64,000 nt of DNA from a virus (taxonomy: Duplodnaviria > Caudoviricetes), in the IMG/VR virus record IMGVR_UViG_3300010203_000021, positions 7,014 to 71,013 of that record; one strand, given 5' to 3'. Position 1 is the stretch's first letter. Each line of letters starts with the position of its first letter. Of this stretch, positions 6,918-35,662 are shown piece by piece. The translations under genes and the position numbers were made by a program. The notes under the pieces are model-generated. The model made no database searches, was not told the DNA's origin, and worked only from the letters and a program-made list of their open reading frames with translations.

Positions 6918-7634
6918 TCAGCCCTCCACTTCGACAAATTCGCCGTCAGCACTCAGCGAATACCAGGTGTTCGGCTTGATGCCGTTTTCACCGACCTTGC
7001 TCGCGCGGATCGCGATGATTTTGTCATTGTCGTCGCGGTGAACGAGGCAGATGGCGCATCCTTCTGCGGCCTGTGCGCGGCCTTTCCAGCCGGTGGAAAT
7101 TGCAACGCCCTGATCGCCGGACGCCGTGGCCGCGCCCCGATTGCCGGACGCCGTGGCCGCGCCCCGATCGCCGGACGCCGTGGCCGCGCCCCGATTGCCG
7201 GACGCCGTGGCCGCGCCCCGATTGCCGGACGCCGTGGCCGCGCCCCGATTGCCGGACGCCGTGGCACCTTCGTTATCTTCGGTGGCAACCGGCCCGTCTT
7301 TCCAGTTCGCGCGTTTGAAAACCCATTCGATGGCGCGCTTGGTCAGATCGCCAATCGAAAGCTCAACGCCGATGGTGATCTTGGCCGATGCGAACTTGGT
7401 GCCGTCCTTGTCAGTGTCGCCGGATTGCTCGACCTCGCAAAAGCGCGACGACGGCGGGTAGTATTCCAGCACCGACAGCGGGTGCTCATCGACCGGGCAA
7501 GCGTGGAAACCGTTCACGCAGGCTTCGATATTTCCGCTGACCTCATAGGTCTTGCCGATTTCAAACTGAAACCCGCGACACGTCATGTCTGGGTTGAACG
7601 CTTTGATGGAAATTGTTTTTTCGTCAGCGGACAT
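6918..7634 (-). CDS. DUF7666-like phage protein with GAATASGNR repeats
   Basis: KAFNPDMTCRGFQFEIGKTY...ACVNGFHAC...PLSVLEYY N-terminus; 9-aa repeats; GIKPNTWYSL C-terminus. Confidence 0.8.
   Translation of the reverse strand: MSADEKTISIKAFNPDMTCRGFQFEIGKTYEVSGNIEACVNGFHACPVDEHPLSVLEYYPPSSRFCEVEQSGDTDKDGTKFASAKITIGVELSIGDLTKRAIEWVFKRANWKDGPVATEDNEGATASGNRGAATASGNRGAATASGNRGAATASGDRGAATASGNRGAATASGDQGVAISTGWKGRAQAAEGCAICLVHRDDNDKIIAIRASKVGENGIKPNTWYSLSADGEFVEVEG
7112..7267. repeat. In-frame 27-bp tandem repeat (~6 copies, CCGATTGCCGGACGCCGTGGCCGCGCC)
   Basis: Directly visible; encodes GAATASG(N/D)R. Confidence 0.95.
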
Positions 7635-25204: not shown

Positions 25205-25343
25205 GCCCTTCCAAATTCACCCTTCTGCCAAGAGGGGCTGATGAGTGCGACCGTTTCCCAGCTTCTCCGGCCGGGGCGGTCGCTTTGCTGTGACCACCCG
25301 TGCGCACTCCGGGCCTTGGCAGGCCCCGGCTGGAGAAGAACCG

Positions 25344-26156
25344 ATGAAACTTGTCCCGTTCGCGTTTGAGAATGTGCCTGTCCGCGTCGCCGACCAGAAT
25401 GGCGAGCCGTGGTTCGTGGCCAAGGATGCCGTTTCTGCACTTGGCAAGACGTGGGATGGTCATTCTCTCGATACGATTCCAGACGCTTGGAAAGGGGTGG
25501 TAAAACTTACCACCCCCGGCGGCGACCAGGAATTGGTCACGATCAACGAGGCAGCGGTCTACAAACTGGCCTTTCGGTCGAACAAGCCCCAAGCTGACCG
25601 CTTCACAAATTGGGTCGCCGGCGACGTCCTTCCGACAATTCGCAAGACCGGAGGATATGGCCTCCCGGCCGACGATGCCGAGCGCGAGTTCGGTATGGTC
25701 AAGAGCCTTGTCCGCGATCTGAAGAAGGCGCGCGACGAGGCCGCAGAATATTGCGCTGAGTTGCGGCGCGGCGTTGAGGATTTGCGCGAGCAAAACCTTC
25801 TCGCCGCGCGCCGCCCCGCCGGCTTTTCCAGTTCGCGCGACTACAAGCTCGCCATCACTGTCGCCGACGAGCAACGCATCCCCGTCGAAGGGCGCGGGCG
25901 TCTCGTCCATTCGATGAAGGCCGCGCTGATCAGGTTCACGGCAGAGCGTAATTTTCCGCAGCCCCGCGAAGAACAGCGAGACGACGGCAGGAAGCCGCGC
26001 CCCATGTTCCATGTTGACGCCATCGCGGCGTGGTTGGTCGCGGAAGGTTATGCCATGATCGCCGCGCATCTCGCCAAGCGTCCGTTCGCACGCCAGCAAA
26101 ATTCGGCGCAGAACGTGTTCAGCTTTGACCAAAAGCGCAAGGCTGGAAAGGCATGA
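25344..26156 (+). CDS. BRO-N family antirepressor-like protein
   Basis: FAFENVPVRV...GEPWFVAKD...INEAAVYKLAFRSNKPQA.RF..WV..DVLPTIRKTGGY. Confidence 0.92.
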   Translation: MKLVPFAFENVPVRVADQNGEPWFVAKDAVSALGKTWDGHSLDTIPDAWKGVVKLTTPGGDQELVTINEAAVYKLAFRSNKPQADRFTNWVAGDVLPTIRKTGGYGLPADDAEREFGMVKSLVRDLKKARDEAAEYCAELRRGVEDLREQNLLAARRPAGFSSSRDYKLAITVADEQRIPVEGRGRLVHSMKAALIRFTAERNFPQPREEQRDDGRKPRPMFHVDAIAAWLVAEGYAMIAAHLAKRPFARQQNSAQNVFSFDQKRKAGKA

Positions 26157-26417: not shown

Positions 26418-26891
26418 ATGCCGCGCCCATCTGAATTCACCGCTGAAAAGGCCGATGAAATCGTCTCACGCCTCTTGAGCGGCGAAAGCATGCGGAAGAT
26501 TTGCCGCGATGACCACATGCCAAACCGGCAGACGGTCATTAGATGGCAGTTGGCGAATGCTGATTTCGCGGCCAAGTGTGCGCGCGCGAGGGAGCAGCGG
26601 GCCGACGACGACTTCGACCGCATGAGCGAGATCGAGGACGACACGCTTTCAGGCGCGATTGATCCACAAGTCGCCAGGGTGGTGCTCTCGTCCATGCAGT
26701 GGCGCACGGCGAAGCTCGCCCCGAAGAAGTACGGCGACAAGCAGCAGATCGAGCACTCTGGCCCCGGGGGTGGTCCGATCCAGACCGAGGAAATCAGCGC
26801 GCGTGACCGCATCGCTAGCCGCCTCGCTCGCATCGCTTCCAGAAGACGAGAGGGCGGCGATCCTGGCAAGCCTGACGGACCAGGAAATTGA
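26418..26891 (+). CDS. terS: Terminase small subunit
   Basis: RPSEFT.E.ADEI..RL.SGESMRKIC...MP...T..RW; RVVLSSMQWR.AKL.PKKYGDK. Confidence 0.92.
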   Translation: MPRPSEFTAEKADEIVSRLLSGESMRKICRDDHMPNRQTVIRWQLANADFAAKCARAREQRADDDFDRMSEIEDDTLSGAIDPQVARVVLSSMQWRTAKLAPKKYGDKQQIEHSGPGGGPIQTEEISARDRIASRLARIASRRREGGDPGKPDGPGN

Positions 26892-28335
26892 AAAACTCGA
26901 ATATGACTGGCTGTTCTGGGCGCGTCCTGATCAACTGCTTCCTCCGCCGCGGGCGGATGACGATCCCCGGGGCGATTGGGTTTACTGGCTTCCGCTTGCC
27001 GGACGTGGCTGGGGTAAAACTCGCACAGGGGCTGAGACGGTTCGGGCATGGGTCAATGCGGGGTTCGATTATGTGAACCTGATCGGCGCGACGACCGACG
27101 ACGTGATTTCGGTCATGATTGAGGGCGAGTCTGGCATTCTCGCGATTTGTCCCAACGGAGAGCGCCCGCGGTTCAATTCGAACAAGCGCCGGCTCGAATG
27201 GCCCAACGGGGCCAAGTCGATGTATTTCTCGGCCGAGGAACCGGAGCGCCTTCGAGGCAAACAGCATTCAAAGCTATGGGCCGATGAGCTTGCATCGTGG
27301 CGTTATTCGGCGGCATGGGATCAAGCGCAATTTGGTCTGCGCCTCGGATCGAAGCCCCAGGCGATAATCACGACGACGCCGCGCCCGACACAGATCATGC
27401 GCGACTTGGTCGAAGATCCTTTGACCCATCTCACGCGCGGCCGTACTTACGACAATATCGGCAATTTGGCCGAGACCTTCCTGAATAAGGTCATCAAGAA
27501 ATACGAAGGAACCCGCCTCGGTCGACAGGAGCTTGAAGCTCACCTGTTGATGGACGTCCCTGGCGCGCTATGGAACCGGGCTATTCTGGACGCCGCCCGG
27601 GTCGTCAAAGTTCCGGCGTTTAAGCGGGTTGTGGTCGGGCTCGACCCCCCAGCGACAAGCGGCGAGGGCGCCGACGAGTGCGGAATTATCGTCGCCGGGC
27701 TTGGCGAAGACGATCACGGCTATGTGCTTGAGGATTGTTCAAGCCAGGGCGAGACGCCCAACGAATGGGCAAAGCGCGCTATTGCAGCCTATCACCGACA
27801 CGAAGCCTCTTGCATCGTCGCTGAGGTCAATAATGGCGGTGAAATGATCGCCACCATCATGCGCGCGATCGACGCGAATATCCCGGTGCGAGAGGTACGC
27901 GCCAGCCAAGGCAAGTTCACCCGGGCCGAGCCTGTATCAATGCTTTACGCGCAAGGGCGCGTCCACCATCAAGGGTCCTTCGCGACCCTTGAGGACCAAA
28001 TGTGCATTATGACTCCTGATTTCGATCGGAAAGCCATGAAGCTTTCGCCGGATCGTGTGGACGCGCTGGTCTGGGCGTTCAAGGAACTGATGCTCAAGGA
28101 CGCCGATGCTTCGGCCATTATTGAACACTACCGCCGCGAGGCCGCCAGCCGAACTAAACCGAAAGAATCAAACAAGAGCGAAATCGCGATTGCGCTGATT
28201 GCGCCCCCCCAAATTTCAACCGCCTACAGCATCACCGGCAAAATGTACCAAGTCGGCGCGAATGGGCGCGTTCTGGTTGAACCAGAGGACGTGGATGGGT
28301 TTGTCGCGTCAGGGTTTAGAAAGGAAAATGGATGA
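26803..28335 (+). CDS. terL: Terminase large subunit (start reassigned to GTG 26803)
   Basis: AGRGWGKT, LRGKQHSKLWADE, VGLDPP, DRVDALVWA; GAGG RBS before GTG. Confidence 0.95.
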   Translation: MTASLAASLASLPEDERAAILASLTDQEIEKLEYDWLFWARPDQLLPPPRADDDPRGDWVYWLPLAGRGWGKTRTGAETVRAWVNAGFDYVNLIGATTDDVISVMIEGESGILAICPNGERPRFNSNKRRLEWPNGAKSMYFSAEEPERLRGKQHSKLWADELASWRYSAAWDQAQFGLRLGSKPQAIITTTPRPTQIMRDLVEDPLTHLTRGRTYDNIGNLAETFLNKVIKKYEGTRLGRQELEAHLLMDVPGALWNRAILDAARVVKVPAFKRVVVGLDPPATSGEGADECGIIVAGLGEDDHGYVLEDCSSQGETPNEWAKRAIAAYHRHEASCIVAEVNNGGEMIATIMRAIDANIPVREVRASQGKFTRAEPVSMLYAQGRVHHQGSFATLEDQMCIMTPDFDRKAMKLSPDRVDALVWAFKELMLKDADASAIIEHYRREAASRTKPKESNKSEIAIALIAPPQISTAYSITGKMYQVGANGRVLVEPEDVDGFVASGFRKENG

Positions 28336-29089: not shown

Positions 29090-29147
29090 AAGGCGCCATC
29101 GAGCGCGTTGGCGAAGAAAAGCAATCTGAGCAATTGAGGACGAACTG

Positions 29148-32048
29148 ATGGCGGAGCGTGGCGAAGGTTTGCCCCAATGGTCGCTGTCGCCCGCCACGGT
29201 GAACATCTCTTATGGCCAGCAGCCTGGAAACCAGGCCGCTGGCGTTGGAACGGGAGCCGGGTGGTTTGACCCGCTCACGCCCCTTGCGCCGCTCGCTCCC
29301 AACAGTGTGGCCGGGCGCCAGTTCGATTTCCCGGCTGGCTACAATATCCAGACACAGCCGCGCGCTTACGAGGGAATCACCTTCGTCAATTTGCGCATGT
29401 TGGCCGATGCCTACGATTTGCTGCGCCTTGTGATTGAAACGCGCAAGGATCAGGTCGAGCGCATGGAGTGGACGATCAAGGCCAAAAGCGGCGCCAAGGT
29501 CGACCAGGGCGAGATCGGCCGGATCACTGATTTTTTCAATTCCCCAGACGGCCCGGACGGCGAACACGATTTCGCGTCTTGGATGCGCGCGCTTCTGGAA
29601 GACCTGTTTGTGATCGACGCACCAGCGATTTGGTGCGAGCGCACCCGCGGCGGCCAGTTGATCGGCCTGCACCCGCTTGATGGCGCGACGATCAAGCCCG
29701 TCATCGACGCATGGGGCCGCCGGCCGCGCCCGGTCCAGTCATTTGGTCGGGTGATCTATCCGGTCGCCTATCAGCAGATTTTGAAGGGCCTCCCCGCCGT
29801 CGACTATACGGCGCGTGACCTGATTTATGCCCCGCGCAACCGCCGCGCCAATCGTGTTTACGGATTGGGGCCGGTCGAGCAAATCATCATGACGGTGTCG
29901 ATTGCCCTGCGCCGGCAGCAGCACCAGCTTAACTACTACACCGAGGGAAATATTCCCGAGTCCCTGATAGGCGTCCCGGACACATGGACGCCCGACCAGA
30001 TCAAGACGTTTCAAGATTACTGGGATATGTACTTCACCGGGGACAGCGCCAGACGCCGGCGCGCCAAGTTTGTGCCCGGCGGCGTGGCGAAAACGTTCAT
30101 TCAAACCCGCGAGCCTGAGCTCAAGAACGTCTTCGACGAATGGCTTGCTCGTGTGGTCTGCTACGCCTTCTCAGTTTCATCGCAACCCCTGATTAACCAG
30201 GTGAACCGCGCCACTGCTGAAACGCAGAAGGAAAGCGCGGAGGAAGAAGGGCTCTGGCCAGTCCTGAATTGGATCAAACGTCTCTGTGACCGCGTGATCC
30301 GGGATGAATTGAACCAGCCGAACGTTGAATTCGCGTGGGGCGGCGAGGACAAGACCGACCCGACCGTCCAGCGAGAAAATCTCGTATCTTATGTCAACGC
30401 CGGCATGATGACCCGCCGCCGCGCCGCCCAGATTATGGGTGAAGAACTGCCGCAGGACCCGGCCGTGGACACACTCATGGTTATGACGAGTTCTGGGCCT
30501 GTCCCTCTGGATCAATATCAACAGGCGCGGGAACAAGCTCAAGCCCTTGCGGAGACGCAAGCAAAGGCAGCACAAGCCCATGTGCAGGCGCAGCAGGCGG
30601 CGCCACAGGGGCAAGAAGGCAGCGCTGGGGGGGATGAGCCAGCCAAAAGCGAAACCGCCACCGGCGCGCCGCTGCGGACCACAGAGGACCCGGCGAAGCC
30701 GGAGCCGAAGCTTGAGGCCAAAAAGTTGGCCAAGGCTGACACCCGCACGCTCTACGTCAATCGTGCTTTGGAGAATGCTGATGATTTAATCGCTTGGGCG
30801 AAAGGGCAGGGGTTCGAAACCACACTTCAAGCCCAGGACATGCACGCTACCATCGTCTATTCCAAGACCCCGCTGGAGTGGCCGGAACCCAGCGAAGCCA
30901 GCAAGGTCACCGCGGGGAACGCGCAGGGGCGCTCAATCGAACGGTTCGGCGAAGACGCCGTTGTGCTGACCTTCAGTTCCGCACAACTCGCGGCTGACCA
31001 TGCGCGACTGCGCGCTGCGGGGGCATCAAGCGATTACCCCGAGTTCCGCCCCCATATCACCCTGACCTATGACGCCGGCGACATCGATCTGAATCAGGTC
31101 GAGCCCTACGCCGGTCCGCTGCATTTCGGCCCTGAGGTCTATCAGGAAATCAAGAAGGGCTGGGCTGACGGCATTGGCGAGAAGATGGCTTTTGCCCCAG
31201 CCGGAACTTTCACCAAGGCGGCGCCGAGCCCGAAAGCGCGCCGCGCGCATCGCGCCATCAAGGCGGTAATGCTCGACGTGTTCAAGACCGCGTCGGCCAA
31301 GGTCGCGAAGACGGTGCGGGATGAACTGTCCGAGAAAATCGGGAAGTTGGCCAAGGCCGAGGACGGTGACGACGATGGCCAAGGCTTGCCAAAGTCTCAG
31401 GCGTCCGATTTGGCCAAGTCAATTTCGGCCAAGGTGGACCTGTCAGCGTTCGATGATGCGGCTGGTGCCGTGGGGGACGCGCTGGCTGACTTCGCCGCCG
31501 ATGCCGCTGAGCAGGCAATCTTGCGCATAGGGCCGGACGTCGCCGACGGTTTGGTCGATCAGGTGAACGCCGGCGCCGTGGCGTGGGCGCGCGATCGGGC
31601 GGCGGAACTTGTCGGCAAACGCATCCTGCCGAATGGGGACATTATCGACAATCCGCGCGCTGAAATGGCGATCACGGGCTCAACGCGAGACATGATCCGT
31701 AACGCGGTGGCCGAGGGCCTTGAGCAGAACACAGGCATCGATGCCATTGTCGAAAAGATTGAGAGCCTGGCGTTCTCACCCGAGCGTGCGGACCTAATCG
31801 CCGAGGTCGAGGTTGGCAATGCGAACAGCAACGCGGCACTGATCGGGTTCAAGGGCGCGCGGGAGGGCGGGGTGAAAGTGAAAAAAGCCTGGTCCACAGC
31901 CCAGGACGAAAAGGTCGAGGAAGAATGCCGCAAAAACGAGGAGGCCGGCGCCATCGACCTTGACGATGTTTTCCCATCGGGGCACGCTGCTCCTCTATGC
32001 CACCCGCGCTGTCGGTGCGCGCTGATTCCGGTTGTTGAGGACGATTGA
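29148..32048 (+). CDS. Portal protein fused to an Acb1-like 2H phosphodiesterase and a Mu gpF (MuF) head-morphogenesis domain
   Basis: N-terminal portal motifs (LLEDLFVIDA, LHPLDGATI, YGLGPVEQ); HATI and HITL 2H motifs at aa 566 and 636; C-terminal MuF ending PLCHPRCRC. Confidence 0.9.
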   Translation: MAERGEGLPQWSLSPATVNISYGQQPGNQAAGVGTGAGWFDPLTPLAPLAPNSVAGRQFDFPAGYNIQTQPRAYEGITFVNLRMLADAYDLLRLVIETRKDQVERMEWTIKAKSGAKVDQGEIGRITDFFNSPDGPDGEHDFASWMRALLEDLFVIDAPAIWCERTRGGQLIGLHPLDGATIKPVIDAWGRRPRPVQSFGRVIYPVAYQQILKGLPAVDYTARDLIYAPRNRRANRVYGLGPVEQIIMTVSIALRRQQHQLNYYTEGNIPESLIGVPDTWTPDQIKTFQDYWDMYFTGDSARRRRAKFVPGGVAKTFIQTREPELKNVFDEWLARVVCYAFSVSSQPLINQVNRATAETQKESAEEEGLWPVLNWIKRLCDRVIRDELNQPNVEFAWGGEDKTDPTVQRENLVSYVNAGMMTRRRAAQIMGEELPQDPAVDTLMVMTSSGPVPLDQYQQAREQAQALAETQAKAAQAHVQAQQAAPQGQEGSAGGDEPAKSETATGAPLRTTEDPAKPEPKLEAKKLAKADTRTLYVNRALENADDLIAWAKGQGFETTLQAQDMHATIVYSKTPLEWPEPSEASKVTAGNAQGRSIERFGEDAVVLTFSSAQLAADHARLRAAGASSDYPEFRPHITLTYDAGDIDLNQVEPYAGPLHFGPEVYQEIKKGWADGIGEKMAFAPAGTFTKAAPSPKARRAHRAIKAVMLDVFKTASAKVAKTVRDELSEKIGKLAKAEDGDDDGQGLPKSQASDLAKSISAKVDLSAFDDAAGAVGDALADFAADAAEQAILRIGPDVADGLVDQVNAGAVAWARDRAAELVGKRILPNGDIIDNPRAEMAITGSTRDMIRNAVAEGLEQNTGIDAIVEKIESLAFSPERADLIAEVEVGNANSNAALIGFKGAREGGVKVKKAWSTAQDEKVEEECRKNEEAGAIDLDDVFPSGHAAPLCHPRCRCALIPVVEDD

Positions 32049-32266
32049 CAAACCTTCGCCCTGTCTTCGTGGTGATGAAGGCCCCCGTCGGGATCGACGG
32101 GGCGGAGGAATTCGTTGGCGCCTTCTGGACCCATGAGGAAGCCAAGGCGGTTTGCCGCAAAGGGGGAACCTTTCGCATCGCCAGGATGGAGATCGGGCGC
32201 GTCTATCGCTCCGGTGAAATGCTGGATGTGCAGATCCTCCGATCGCTGAGCATCAAAGAACTTTAA
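32045..32266 (+). CDS. Small hypothetical protein
   Basis: TTGA coupling with the portal stop. Confidence 0.55.
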   Translation: MTNLRPVFVVMKAPVGIDGAEEFVGAFWTHEEAKAVCRKGGTFRIARMEIGRVYRSGEMLDVQILRSLSIKEL

Positions 32267-32333: not shown

Positions 32334-34019
32334 ATGTCCGGCCTGAACGTCTTTGTCCCGATCACGAAAATCGACGCGGCGAAGCGTCTGGTTTATGGCG
32401 TCGCTACCGCTGAACAGCCCGACCGGGCCGGCGAAGTCTGCGATTACGAGTCCACCAAGCCGCATTACCAGAAATGGAGCGGCGATATCGCCAAGGCTTC
32501 GGACGGCAAGAGCCTGGGCAATCTTCGCGCCATGCACGGCAAGGTCGCCGCCGGGAAGGTGACTGATATCGCCTTCAATGACAGCGCCAAGCAGGTCGAG
32601 ATTTGCGCAAAGGTAGTCGACGACACCGAATGGAAGAAGGTCGAGGAGGGAGTCTACACCGGCTTCAGCCAGGGCGGCGCGTACGAAAAGCGTTGGACGG
32701 ACCCGGAAAACCCTGGATTGACGCGCTACACCGCTATTCCCTCGGAAATCTCGCTGGTGGATCTTCCTTGCCTCCCGGGCGCGACGTTCTCGTTCGTCAA
32801 AACTGATGGTTCGACCGAACTGCGCAAGTTCCATGAGCCGGCGCCGGCCGCGGCCAAGGAACCGACAAACGCCGAAATTGCTGAAAAGGCCACGGAATTG
32901 GCGAAAGCGGCGGGGAACGAAACAAAATGGGTTGAGCATCTGGACGCCGCGCGCGCTGAGCTGATGAAAGCGGCGGCGCCGGTTGACAAAGGCCCCAATA
33001 CGAACGCCGAGCCGGTCGCGGAGGCGGTCAAAACGGCTGGATCGGGGGACATGGCTGACCTGGGAGCCAAGCCCGAGACCCCTGTCAACAGCGACGGTGT
33101 CGAACAGGTCTGGAAGGCCAAGGACGGCTCCACGTTCGCCAAGAAGGCTGACGCCATCGCGCACAATGCGCATTTGGATGCTCAAGCCGCCGCGAAGGCG
33201 GTCGCCGGCCCAGCCGAAGCCGCGCTCGCCGCATTGGAGGCAAAATTCGGCAAGGGTACCGAACAGGACGCCAAGGCCATTACCGCCGCCAATGAGGGTG
33301 AGAAGATCGCCGAGGCGCTAAAAGCTGCGCGCGGTGAGTTCCAAAAGGCGCTCGCCGGTGCGTTTGAAGGCGACGACCTTGCGAAATACATCGGGGAAGA
33401 AGCTTGGGACGCCGCACAGGCGATCCAGGCGGTGAATTCGATTTTCTCGCTGCTCGTTGGGGAAATGGGAGAAGCCGAAGATCATCCGGAACAGATCGCT
33501 GCGTTGCGCGCCGCCATCGCGAGCCTCAAGGATTTCATCGTCTCGGAGATCCAGGAGGACAACGACCCCGACGCCGCGATGGAGCGCGCCGTTGCCGCTC
33601 TCGATCTCGCCAAGAAGGGCGCGCGCAACAGTGCTAAGGACGCCAGTCGCATCCAGGCTGTCCACGATCACTCGTGCGGGCTCGGCGCCAAGTGCAACAA
33701 GGACAATTGCGGCGATGACGCCGAAAAGGCCATGGCGGCGGATCAGATGGCCAAGGTGGTCGCTGAAAAGGACGCCCTCAAGGCGCAGATCGAGGCACTC
33801 ACTAAGCGCGTCGAGGAAATCGCGGCCATGCCGATGCGCCCTTATTGGGCGCCGGGAACGCAGCCGATCGACAAGGCGGCCGATAATGGCCAAGGCCAGC
33901 TGAGCCCGGTCGAACAGGATTTCGTCAAGCTCCCCCCCGACGAACAGGCCAAGGTGCTCTTCAAGCTCGCCCAGCAGCAGGGCAAACCCATTCTCGCCCG
34001 CGGCACCAGCCAGGGGTGA
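32334..34019 (+). CDS. Prohead protease/scaffold fusion
   Basis: KIDAAKRLVYG, MHG, GVYTGFSQGG, EISLVDLPC protease-like N-terminus; Ala/Glu/Lys-rich coiled-coil C-terminus; precedes the capsid gene. Confidence 0.85.
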   Translation: MSGLNVFVPITKIDAAKRLVYGVATAEQPDRAGEVCDYESTKPHYQKWSGDIAKASDGKSLGNLRAMHGKVAAGKVTDIAFNDSAKQVEICAKVVDDTEWKKVEEGVYTGFSQGGAYEKRWTDPENPGLTRYTAIPSEISLVDLPCLPGATFSFVKTDGSTELRKFHEPAPAAAKEPTNAEIAEKATELAKAAGNETKWVEHLDAARAELMKAAAPVDKGPNTNAEPVAEAVKTAGSGDMADLGAKPETPVNSDGVEQVWKAKDGSTFAKKADAIAHNAHLDAQAAAKAVAGPAEAALAALEAKFGKGTEQDAKAITAANEGEKIAEALKAARGEFQKALAGAFEGDDLAKYIGEEAWDAAQAIQAVNSIFSLLVGEMGEAEDHPEQIAALRAAIASLKDFIVSEIQEDNDPDAAMERAVAALDLAKKGARNSAKDASRIQAVHDHSCGLGAKCNKDNCGDDAEKAMAADQMAKVVAEKDALKAQIEALTKRVEEIAAMPMRPYWAPGTQPIDKAADNGQGQLSPVEQDFVKLPPDEQAKVLFKLAQQQGKPILARGTSQG

Positions 34020-34147: not shown

Positions 34148-35662
34148 ATGAACGACCACGTCAACGTCCTCGCCGCCATGAAGAAAGCGCACGAGGCGCC
34201 CATCACCGACCCGCGCCTTGCCGCGATCGCTGGGCTCGAAAAGTCCACCTTTGCGCAGGCGGTCTCCGCCACCTCCGGCCTCACCTATTACGACCTCGAG
34301 ACCGGCGCGAAGCTCCTCTACCCGGTTTTGACCCCCCTTCGCAATGAAACGCCCCGCGTTTCGGGCAAGGGCGGCATTCAGGCCGCTTGGCGCGGCGTGA
34401 CCGCGATCAATACCTCGGGCCTGCGCGTCGGCGTCTCCGGCGGCAACCGTGGCGGCGTGATGGCCGTCACCACCAAAGACTACAGCGCCTCCTATAAGGG
34501 GATCGGCATCGAGTCCAACGTCGACTTCGAAGCGCAGTATGCCGGCCAGGGCTTTGACGACATCCGCGCGCTCGCGGCGCGCCAAGGTCTCGAAGCCCTC
34601 ATGCTCGGGGAGGAAGCCCTGATCCTCGGCGGCAACAGTGGCGCGAATCTCGCGCTAGGCACGACCCCGACCCCGACTCTCACCGGCTCGACCTCCGGCG
34701 GCGCGCTCGCAGCGCAGACTTGGTCCGTGATCTGCGTCGCCCTGACGCTTGACGGCGTGATCAACGGCTCGGTCGCCGGCGGCATTCAGGCCTCCATCAC
34801 CCGCACCAACGCCGACGGCTCGTCGGACACCTATGGTGGCGGCGCGGCGCGCAAATCCTCCAGCGCCACCGTGGCGACCACCGGATCGACCTCATCGATC
34901 TCGGCCTCCGTCGCCGCAGTCAACGGCGCTCTCGGCTACGCCTGGTTCTGGGGTGCGGCGGGCTCCGAACTGCTCGGCGCCATCACCACGATCAACTCCG
35001 TGGTCGTCACCGCCGCCGCGACGGGAACCCAGACGGCCGCCTCGCTCCCGGCCACCGACTATTCGGGCAATTCGCTCGTTTTCGACGGTCTTCTGACCCT
35101 GGCGCAGTCCTCGGGCTCGGGCGCCTATGTGCTGACACAGCCGACCGGCACGGCTGGCGCGGGCACGCCGCTGACTGCGGACGGCGCCGGCGGCATCGTG
35201 GAAATTGATCAGGTCCTGAAATACCAGTGGGACTATTACCGCCTGTCGCCCGACACGATCTGGGTCTCCTCGCAGGAAGCCCAGAACATCGGCAAGAAGA
35301 TTCTCGCCGGCGGCACGTCGGCGGCCCAGCGGTTTGTGATCCAGACCACGCCGGACGCCCTGGCGGGCGGCATCATGGCCGTCGCCTATCGAAACAAGTT
35401 CTCGATGGCCGGCGCCAAGACGCTGGACATCAAGATCCACCCGAACCTGCCGAACGGCACGACGCTGTTCACGTCGAAGTCGCTGCCCTATCCGCTGGCG
35501 AATGTCGCCAACGTGTTCCAGATTCGGACGCGCCAGGACTATTACCAGATCGAATGGCCGCTGCGCTCGCGCAAGTACGAATACGGCGTCTATGCCGACG
35601 AGGTGCTTCAGCACTTCTTCCCGCCGTCCATGGCCGTTATCACCAACATCGGCAACGGCTGA
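34148..35662 (+). CDS. Major capsid protein
   Basis: Position and size; LTYYDLE, PVLTPLRN.TPRV, KIHPNLP.GT; internal Thr/Ser/Gly-rich insertion. Confidence 0.88.
   Translation: MNDHVNVLAAMKKAHEAPITDPRLAAIAGLEKSTFAQAVSATSGLTYYDLETGAKLLYPVLTPLRNETPRVSGKGGIQAAWRGVTAINTSGLRVGVSGGNRGGVMAVTTKDYSASYKGIGIESNVDFEAQYAGQGFDDIRALAARQGLEALMLGEEALILGGNSGANLALGTTPTPTLTGSTSGGALAAQTWSVICVALTLDGVINGSVAGGIQASITRTNADGSSDTYGGGAARKSSSATVATTGSTSSISASVAAVNGALGYAWFWGAAGSELLGAITTINSVVVTAAATGTQTAASLPATDYSGNSLVFDGLLTLAQSSGSGAYVLTQPTGTAGAGTPLTADGAGGIVEIDQVLKYQWDYYRLSPDTIWVSSQEAQNIGKKILAGGTSAAQRFVIQTTPDALAGGIMAVAYRNKFSMAGAKTLDIKIHPNLPNGTTLFTSKSLPYPLANVANVFQIRTRQDYYQIEWPLRSRKYEYGVYADEVLQHFFPPSMAVITNIGNG

Follow-up and report, generated by a model that had tools for sequence, protein, structure and literature searches.

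A phage portal protein carrying an Acb1-type phosphodiesterase domain and a MuF domain in one chain, a predicted head-packaged enzyme against cyclic nucleotide signals

The stretch of viral DNA analyzed here (the window, 64,000 nucleotides) comprises positions 7,014 to 71,013 of the IMG/VR record IMGVR_UViG_3300010203_000021, a 71-kb provirus of the Caudoviricetes. It contains an open reading frame (ORF) at 29148 to 32048 on the plus strand, which joins a phage portal domain, an Acb1-type 2H phosphodiesterase domain, and a MuF head domain in a single polypeptide of 966 amino acids (aa), hereafter P0001. Acb1 is the phage enzyme that degrades the signals of CBASS, an antiphage signaling system based on cyclic oligonucleotides. 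We propose that the gene probably encodes a protein of the head interior, that is, an encapsidated enzyme directed against such signals. The features of the fusion gene are as follows.

29136 to 29139, plus strand: Shine-Dalgarno sequence GAGG, 8 nt upstream of the ATG of the fusion gene (read from the sequence)
29148 to 30512, plus strand: portal domain, aa 1–455 (Pfam Phage_portal, phrog_2662, BLAST)
30513 to 30737, plus strand: low-complexity linker rich in Gln, Ala, Pro, and Glu, aa 456–530 (translation)
30738 to 31178, plus strand: Acb1-type 2H phosphodiesterase domain, aa 531–677 (Pfam, phmmer, AlphaFold2 model, Foldseek)
30843 (H566), 30849 (T568), 31053 (H636), and 31059 (T638), plus strand: catalytic residues of the Acb1 domain
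31161 (W672), plus strand: putative lid Trp of the Acb1 domain
31188 to 31667, plus strand: conserved N-terminal region of a MuF-type protein, aa 681–840 (BLAST)
31692 to 32027, plus strand: MuF (SPP1 gp7-like) head domain, aa 849–960 (Pfam, PHROG)

The reading frame ran without stop codons through the portal, linker, Acb1, and MuF parts in this order. The initial annotation of this DNA had described a 966-aa ORF with a domain embedded between portal and MuF, and both the uninterrupted frame and the flanking Pfam domains bear this out. The peptide it quoted is the exact translation of 30738 to 31180, and the two His codons it pointed to, at 30843 (H566) and 31053 (H636), each begin an HxT motif (HAT and HIT, respectively). 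In the N-terminal part, Pfam Phage_portal (PF04860) matched aa 136–423 with an E-value of 5e-17 and 62.4 bits against a cut-off of 39.1. This part also matched phrog_2662 (portal) at E 1e-91, and its BLAST identity to the portal part in portal-MuF relatives was 39–52%. At the other end, Pfam Phage_Mu_F (PF04233) matched aa 849–960 (E 3.5e-12, 47.5 bits against a cut-off of 29.6), and the MuF part fell in PHROG families of head morphogenesis and minor head proteins; the region ahead of it, aa 681–840, showed 26–53% identity to the same region in portal-MuF relatives, whether or not these carry Acb1. The linker (aa 456–530) had no BLAST counterpart in any relative and may be regarded as a candidate cleavage region. 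Shine-Dalgarno-like sequences with candidate internal start codons were found at aa 440, 479, 708, and 711. With both portal and MuF domains above their cut-offs in one polypeptide encoded in a late head module, P0001 has the layout of the portal-MuF carriers of predicted head-packaged effectors in the sense of Iyer et al. (2017) and Jamet et al. (2017).

The embedded domain belongs to the Acb1 family and is clearly nearer to Acb1 than to LigT, as seen in its hidden Markov model (HMM) match, catalytic motifs, and fold. Pfam Acb1 (PF23474) matched aa 533–674 over positions 1–143 of its 144, with an E-value of 2.6e-38 and 131.4 bits against a gathering score of 27. The best sequence match in the PDB was to residues 470–614 in the C-terminal portion of the Pam3 portal (8hds_A; E 7.6e-20), followed by Acb1 of Erwinia phage FBB1 (7t26_A; phmmer E 6e-13) and then by the phosphodiesterase of Burkholderia phage BCSR5. 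In the phmmer alignment to 7t26_A, the two HxT motifs lined up, as did the C-terminal Trp. An AlphaFold2 model covering aa 521–686, built on 20 homologues, reached a pLDDT of 87.8 and a pTM of 0.80. When this model was compared with the PDB using Foldseek, the FBB1 Acb1 structures 7T26 (E 5e-10) and 7T27 (E 1.6e-9) ranked first, with a TM score by target of 0.78, and the BCSR5 phosphodiesterase structures 9Q2Y and 9Q2G came next, down to E 5e-7. LigT and other 2H enzymes were matched at E-values of about 1e-3 and weaker. The tetrad H566/T568/H636/T638 was retained in 19 of the 20 aligned homologues, the sole exception being P0024, in which the second half of the domain is missing. Y536, R539, and W550 were retained in 18–19 of the 20, and W672, which aligns with a Trp in the C-terminal tail of 7t26_A, in 16. 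Membership in the Acb1 family therefore follows from the Pfam score, the Foldseek ranking, and the conservation of the tetrad, the aromatic residues, and the putative lid Trp. The HMM and structure searches of about aa 530–680 that the initial annotation had proposed both gave Acb1, in agreement with its assignment of an Acb1-like domain. In the Pam3 portal gp3 of the Pseudanabaena phage, the deposited sequence of 8HDS chain A has an Acb1-like domain with both HxT/S motifs at residues 470–614.

A 2H domain could instead act on RNA, as an Usb1-like RNase or as a LigT-like healer of the 2′,3′-cyclic phosphate ends left by host anticodon nucleases. The middle part of P0001 fell in phrog_755, which is labelled "RNA ligase"; the Pfam models LigT_PEase (13.7–18.6 bits against 23.3) and 2_5_RNA_ligase2 (19.9–24.1 bits against 27) gave matches below threshold; and an RNase role was kept open by Iyer et al. 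(2017; PMC5512222). The label of phrog_755 is a legacy name for 2H proteins. The Acb1 HMM scored about 110 bits above the LigT-type models, Acb1 matched 6–7 orders of magnitude better than LigT in the fold comparison, and neither an RNA ligase (PF09414) nor RtcB (PF01139) was found by Pfam in the provirus record. The closer match to a LigT-type RNA ligase, which the initial annotation had named as an outcome that would speak against it, was thus not observed, and we consider an RNA target improbable.

Acb1 works by metal-independent acid-base catalysis with an HxT/HxT tetrad, aromatic stacking, and a C-terminal lid (PMC9117128). Cyclic di- and trinucleotides are cleaved on the 3′ side of adenosine, cA4 is left uncut, and Thoeris signals are not mentioned in that study (Hobbs et al. 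2022, PMC9117128). The statement in the initial annotation that Acb1 also degrades "Thoeris-type" signals is not supported by that study and needs correction; the substrates given by Hobbs et al. are only the adenosine-containing cyclic di- and trinucleotides of CBASS. A mapping of the FBB1 Acb1 residues Y12, W74, F107, and E141 onto the domain was dropped because the SEQRES alignment was unreliable for numbering.

The portal-Acb1-MuF fusion is real and not an assembly artefact. A separate Logan assembly yielded a 27.8-kb contig that spans 29100 to 32100 at a word depth of 169 with no substitutions or indels. P0001 was also seen on a longer contig, of 199,986 bases. Three proteins from other samples, P0003, P0004, and P0005, show the same succession of portal, Acb1, and MuF by Pfam. 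P0006 shares this order, with portal and Acb1 found by Pfam and an intein-interrupted MuF region found by BLAST only; the identities of these four to P0001 range from 44 to 49%. P0024 has the same order at 31% identity with a decayed Acb1 domain, and more than 20 further portal-MuF fusions share the backbone without Acb1. In one of the relatives, P0018, an ADP-ribosyltransferase occupies the slot held by Acb1 elsewhere. A whole-protein scan of genome contigs found one relative only, matching in the Acb1 part only, on a metagenome chromosome. The reality of the fusion thus rests on the identical independent re-assembly and on the relatives that share the domain order, and the assembly artefact on which the initial annotation said its proposal would founder was not found.

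An assembly chimera, or a sequencing error that reads through separate portal-Acb1 and MuF genes, would also produce a three-domain ORF. In Sinorhizobium phage HMSP1-Susan, a portal-Acb1 gene is indeed followed by a separate, adjacent MuF gene with an 8-nt overlap, and the only public sequencing run that carries the stretch, a freshwater metagenome, is probably its source sample (no RNA run was among the carriers). Such an error is hardly credible, given that the Logan assembly of that very run spans the ORF in one contig without differences, that P0003–P0006 from other samples are single chains with the same order, and that the portal-MuF fusions lacking Acb1 have the same backbone. With the portal-Acb1 gene of HMSP1-Susan placed ahead of its MuF gene, the domain order of P0001 mirrors a common gene order; a position of muf genes directly downstream of the portal gene is also reported by Jamet et al. 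(2017, PMC5576092). BLAST similarity between HMSP1-Susan and P0001 was confined to the Acb1 part; the phage is an example of a shared gene order rather than of direct ancestry.

Some relatives carry additional material. The gap between portal and Acb1 contains an extra 340–430 aa in P0003 (430–857), P0004 (430–794), and P0006 (450–786); these modules matched no Pfam family and contain long hydrophobic stretches rich in Ala, Gly, and Val that resemble membrane segments. The intein splicing domain of P0006 (aa 1207–1513) lies inside the MuF domain, at a conserved C-terminal Cys motif. In portal-MuF and MuF relatives with extra cargo modules, we observed the motif [D/E]xxRDxxGR[W/F]xxGG at the module borders, at aa 517, 540, and 774 of P0003, 543 and 569 of P0004, 990 of P0005, 44 and 310 of P0017, 554 of P0018, and 238, 518, and 684 of P0029. 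This motif may be a processing or recombination junction.

To place the domain among its carriers, an HMMER search was run over 1.84 billion representative proteins, and clusters were kept at E ≤ 0.001. Acb1 domains were found in 2,182 clusters. Only 5 of the 149 best representative clusters (query excluded) were shorter than 200 aa. A Pfam scan of 87 of these 149 gave the following partner domains, counted as hits, so that one protein may match two portal models.

Portal families: 27 hits (Phage_portal_3, 17; Phage_portal, 7; Portal_Mu, 2; Phage_portal_2, 1)
Prohead protease families: 22 hits (S78_2/XkdF, 13; DUF2213, 6; S78, 3)
ADP-ribosyltransferase families: 6 hits (3, 2, and 1)
MuF: 5
ChaB: 4
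Topoisomerase IB: 2
Zeta toxin: 1

The architectures Acb1-DUF2213, Acb1-S78, Acb1-XkdF, and ChaB-Acb1-XkdF-ADP-ribosyltransferase were checked singly, and genuine fusions of prohead protease and Acb1 are present in metagenomic proteins by Pfam. Among the clusters nearest to the domain, almost none are stand-alone, and in most the carrier is a portal, a prohead protease, or a MuF protein. What these carriers have in common is a location inside the procapsid (in portals, that of the C-terminus); because the domain keeps company with such proteins, encapsidation is suggested, and this is the main argument from which we infer it. The census further suggests that capsid-borne delivery could be the commonest deployment of Acb1 in the clade nearest to this domain.

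In phages that have been cultured, the copies nearest to the domain are parts of portal genes, namely those of Rhizobium phages RHEph/RHph, Pseudomonas phages phiPSA1 and MR15, Synechococcus phages, Pam3, and Aminobacter phage Erebus; the stand-alone T4-like copies are more distant (26–38% identity). The 624-aa protein P0044 contains ChaB, Acb1, an XkdF protease, and an ADP-ribosyltransferase in one chain, and Acb1 is joined to NUDIX in P0025 (by scan) and P0040 (precomputed Pfam listing). These three proteins combine Acb1 with other domains of predicted counter-defence type. One apparent protease fusion, gp129 of Roseobacter phage DSS3P8 (KT870145.1, 3989–4441), was rejected: it is a 150-aa stand-alone Acb1-like gene misannotated as "prohead protease, HK97 family", and it lies among non-structural genes (poly(A) polymerase and thioredoxin). 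A match in Ruegeria phage vB_RpoS-V10 has the same size, identity, and annotation as gp129, and the annotation error is probably common to both.

The fusion gene lies in a late head module, between the terminase gene and genes for protease-like, scaffold-like, and probable capsid proteins. Its neighbours are as follows.

25245 to 26156, plus strand: Ant-type anti-repressor gene (phrog_130, E 3e-38), just upstream of the gene for terminase
26659 to 28335, plus strand: large terminase subunit gene, upstream of the fusion gene (Pfam Terminase_6N, E 4e-22, and Terminase_6C, E 5e-19; PHROG terminase large subunit)
32334 to 34019, plus strand: next gene downstream, 561 aa, probable prohead protease (aa 1–175) with an Ala/Lys/Glu-rich helical, scaffold-like tail
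34148 to 35662, plus strand: gene probably encoding the major capsid protein, a role read from size and position (phrog_13692, E 1e-134, with no function named for the family)

The capsid-sized gene is followed by a head-tail adaptor gene (PHROG). The product of 32334 to 34019 had no sequence match in Pfam or the PDB and matched phrog_9427 (head maturation protease) weakly (E 9e-4). Its ESM Atlas features agreed at 0.94 with Peptidase_S78 clusters, and its Atlas model aligned to S78/XkdF clusters with TM scores of at most 0.83 by query and 0.18–0.60 by target.

Portal C-termini face the capsid interior, and the portal gpH of phage Mu is trimmed in maturation. Since the portal part would also nucleate the procapsid, the Acb1-MuF part would become incorporated at the portal vertex, on its inner face, in up to 12 copies per particle. 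Judging by homology, the Acb1 domain would cut the 3′-5′ bond next to adenosine in the cyclic di- and trinucleotides of CBASS by the metal-independent acid-base mechanism, and with its signal destroyed, the CBASS effector would never be switched on. By analogy alone, with injected T4 Alt, portal-bound SPP1 gp7, and the MuF toxin hypothesis, the linker could be cut by the neighbouring protease-like product, the cargo could leave the capsid with the DNA, and the exported enzyme could act in the next cell ahead of any phage gene expression. MuF binds the portal, and MuF cargo has been proposed to be injected (PMC5576092). Tentatively, then, we envisage that Acb1 is loaded via portal and MuF, freed by the prohead protease, and injected with the leading DNA end, in which case the phage would arrive already armed against CBASS, and possibly against other signaling by cyclic di- or trinucleotides.

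By analogy with T4 Alt, SPP1 gp7, and the MuF toxins, the enzyme may also be at work in the producing cell at a late stage, once CBASS is triggered by head proteins. Such a role is plausible as well, because CBASS is activated late by head proteins and, in T4, by the prohead protease (bioRxiv 10.64898/2026.03.04.709575). Taken to its limit, this becomes an account in which Acb1 is active in the producing cell only: the portal fusion would tie its synthesis to the late head genes that trigger CBASS, and the capsid copies would stay tethered and idle in the next infection. The link of late CBASS activation to head assembly proteins and the prohead protease fits this account, as does the ORF itself, which has no recognisable cleavage or junction motif; a portal-tethered enzyme would be stuck in the capsid unless cut, and the more than 12 portal copies made per progeny particle would be ample for an enzyme. 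We nevertheless regard activity confined to the producing cell as rather unlikely. Co-expression needs no covalent fusion, whereas repeated fusion to three classes of procapsid-interior proteins is the pattern expected of packaged, delivered cargo, and the domain co-occurs with ADP-ribosyltransferases, topoisomerase IB, and zeta toxin.

Several points weigh against an encapsidated enzyme that degrades CBASS signals and is released from the portal. The function of an Acb1 domain embedded in portal or MuF proteins is predicted from sequence and fold. In the fold alignment, the domain is only about 26% identical to characterised Acb1, and the lid, which is a free C-terminus in stand-alone Acb1, is here followed by about 290 residues. 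The adenine-specific Glu of FBB1 Acb1 aligns with Q666 or E667, depending on the register, at a position that varies among the homologues; its counterpart may be Gln666, and the substrate range could then differ. The Acb1-like domain of Pam3 was not among the Foldseek matches to the deposited cryo-EM model (8HDS) and is not discussed in the structure paper. Release of Acb1 from the portal is proposed by analogy, and the junction motif of the cargo-bearing relatives is missing from P0001 and from the relatives without extra cargo. The identification of the product of 32334 to 34019 as an S78/XkdF-type prohead protease is weak, a lead rather than a proof. No SMODS/CD-NTase gene was found in the 71-kb provirus record, which says nothing about CBASS in the host.

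We know of no virion-delivered cyclic-nucleotide nuclease that has been shown experimentally. Acb1 has been studied as a small soluble protein of T4, whereas the closest relatives of the P0001 domain mostly form part of proteins of the capsid interior. Should copies of the enzyme enter the cell along with the DNA, phages could shut down CBASS ahead of their own gene expression. A fusion of prohead protease and Acb1 would couple the antidote to the trigger of CBASS, given the trigger role reported for the protease (bioRxiv 10.64898/2026.03.04.709575). A useful outcome of this analysis is that the cultured phages phiPSA1, RHEph04/06, and Pam3 are recognised as carriers in which the prediction is testable.

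The idea put forward in the initial annotation is not new: both the architecture and its reading as a packaged effector were described by Iyer et al. in 2017 and 2022. In the first of these studies (Iyer, Burroughs, Anand, de Souza, and Aravind 2017, J Bacteriol, PMC5512222), 2H domains fused to portal or MuF in phages were predicted to be packaged in the head and to degrade immune nucleotides. The second (Iyer et al. 2022, Viruses, PMC9503650) made the same prediction explicitly for SMODS (CBASS), cyclic-mononucleotide, and CRISPR signaling. P0001 resembles these proteins in the joining of 2H to portal and MuF, in its late head-gene context, and in the logic of a packaged, injected, signal-degrading enzyme. 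Those studies, however, were computational and treated architectures in general, P0001 was not described in them, and it is now possible to place its 2H domain in Acb1, a family defined by biochemistry. P0001 is thus a further example, with an intact active site, of a class that was predicted computationally in 2017 and 2022.

With Acb1 (T4 gene 57B; FBB1, 7T26/7T27) and the BCSR5 2H phosphodiesterase PDE-9 (9Q2Y/9Q2G), the domain shares PF23474, the HxT/HxT tetrad, and the 2H fold, and it has a putative C-terminal lid segment bearing Trp. Each of those enzymes is a protein by itself, about 150 aa long, whereas the domain of P0001 is internal to a 966-aa head protein. Portal fusions are not discussed in the main text of Hobbs et al. 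2022 (PMC9117128) or in the 2025 preprint on viral 2H phosphodiesterases. Closer in layout are the portals with a C-terminal Acb1-like domain (Pam3 gp3, 8HDS; Rhizobium RHEph/RHph; phiPSA1 and MR15), in which Acb1 also follows the portal, at 32–47% identity. These portals of cultured phages have two domains, some with a separate MuF gene directly downstream (HMSP1-Susan), whereas MuF is fused as well in P0001. Finally, P0001 is comparable to the MuF polymorphic toxins (Jamet et al. 2017, PMC5576092) and to the T4 ADP-ribosyltransferase Alt, which are head-associated carriers with enzymatic cargo that is proposed, and in the case of Alt known, to enter the host together with the DNA. In the MuF toxins, the cargo is C-terminal to MuF and consists of a toxin accompanied by an immunity gene; in P0001, it is N-terminal to MuF, joined to the portal, and predicted to be a counter-defence enzyme.

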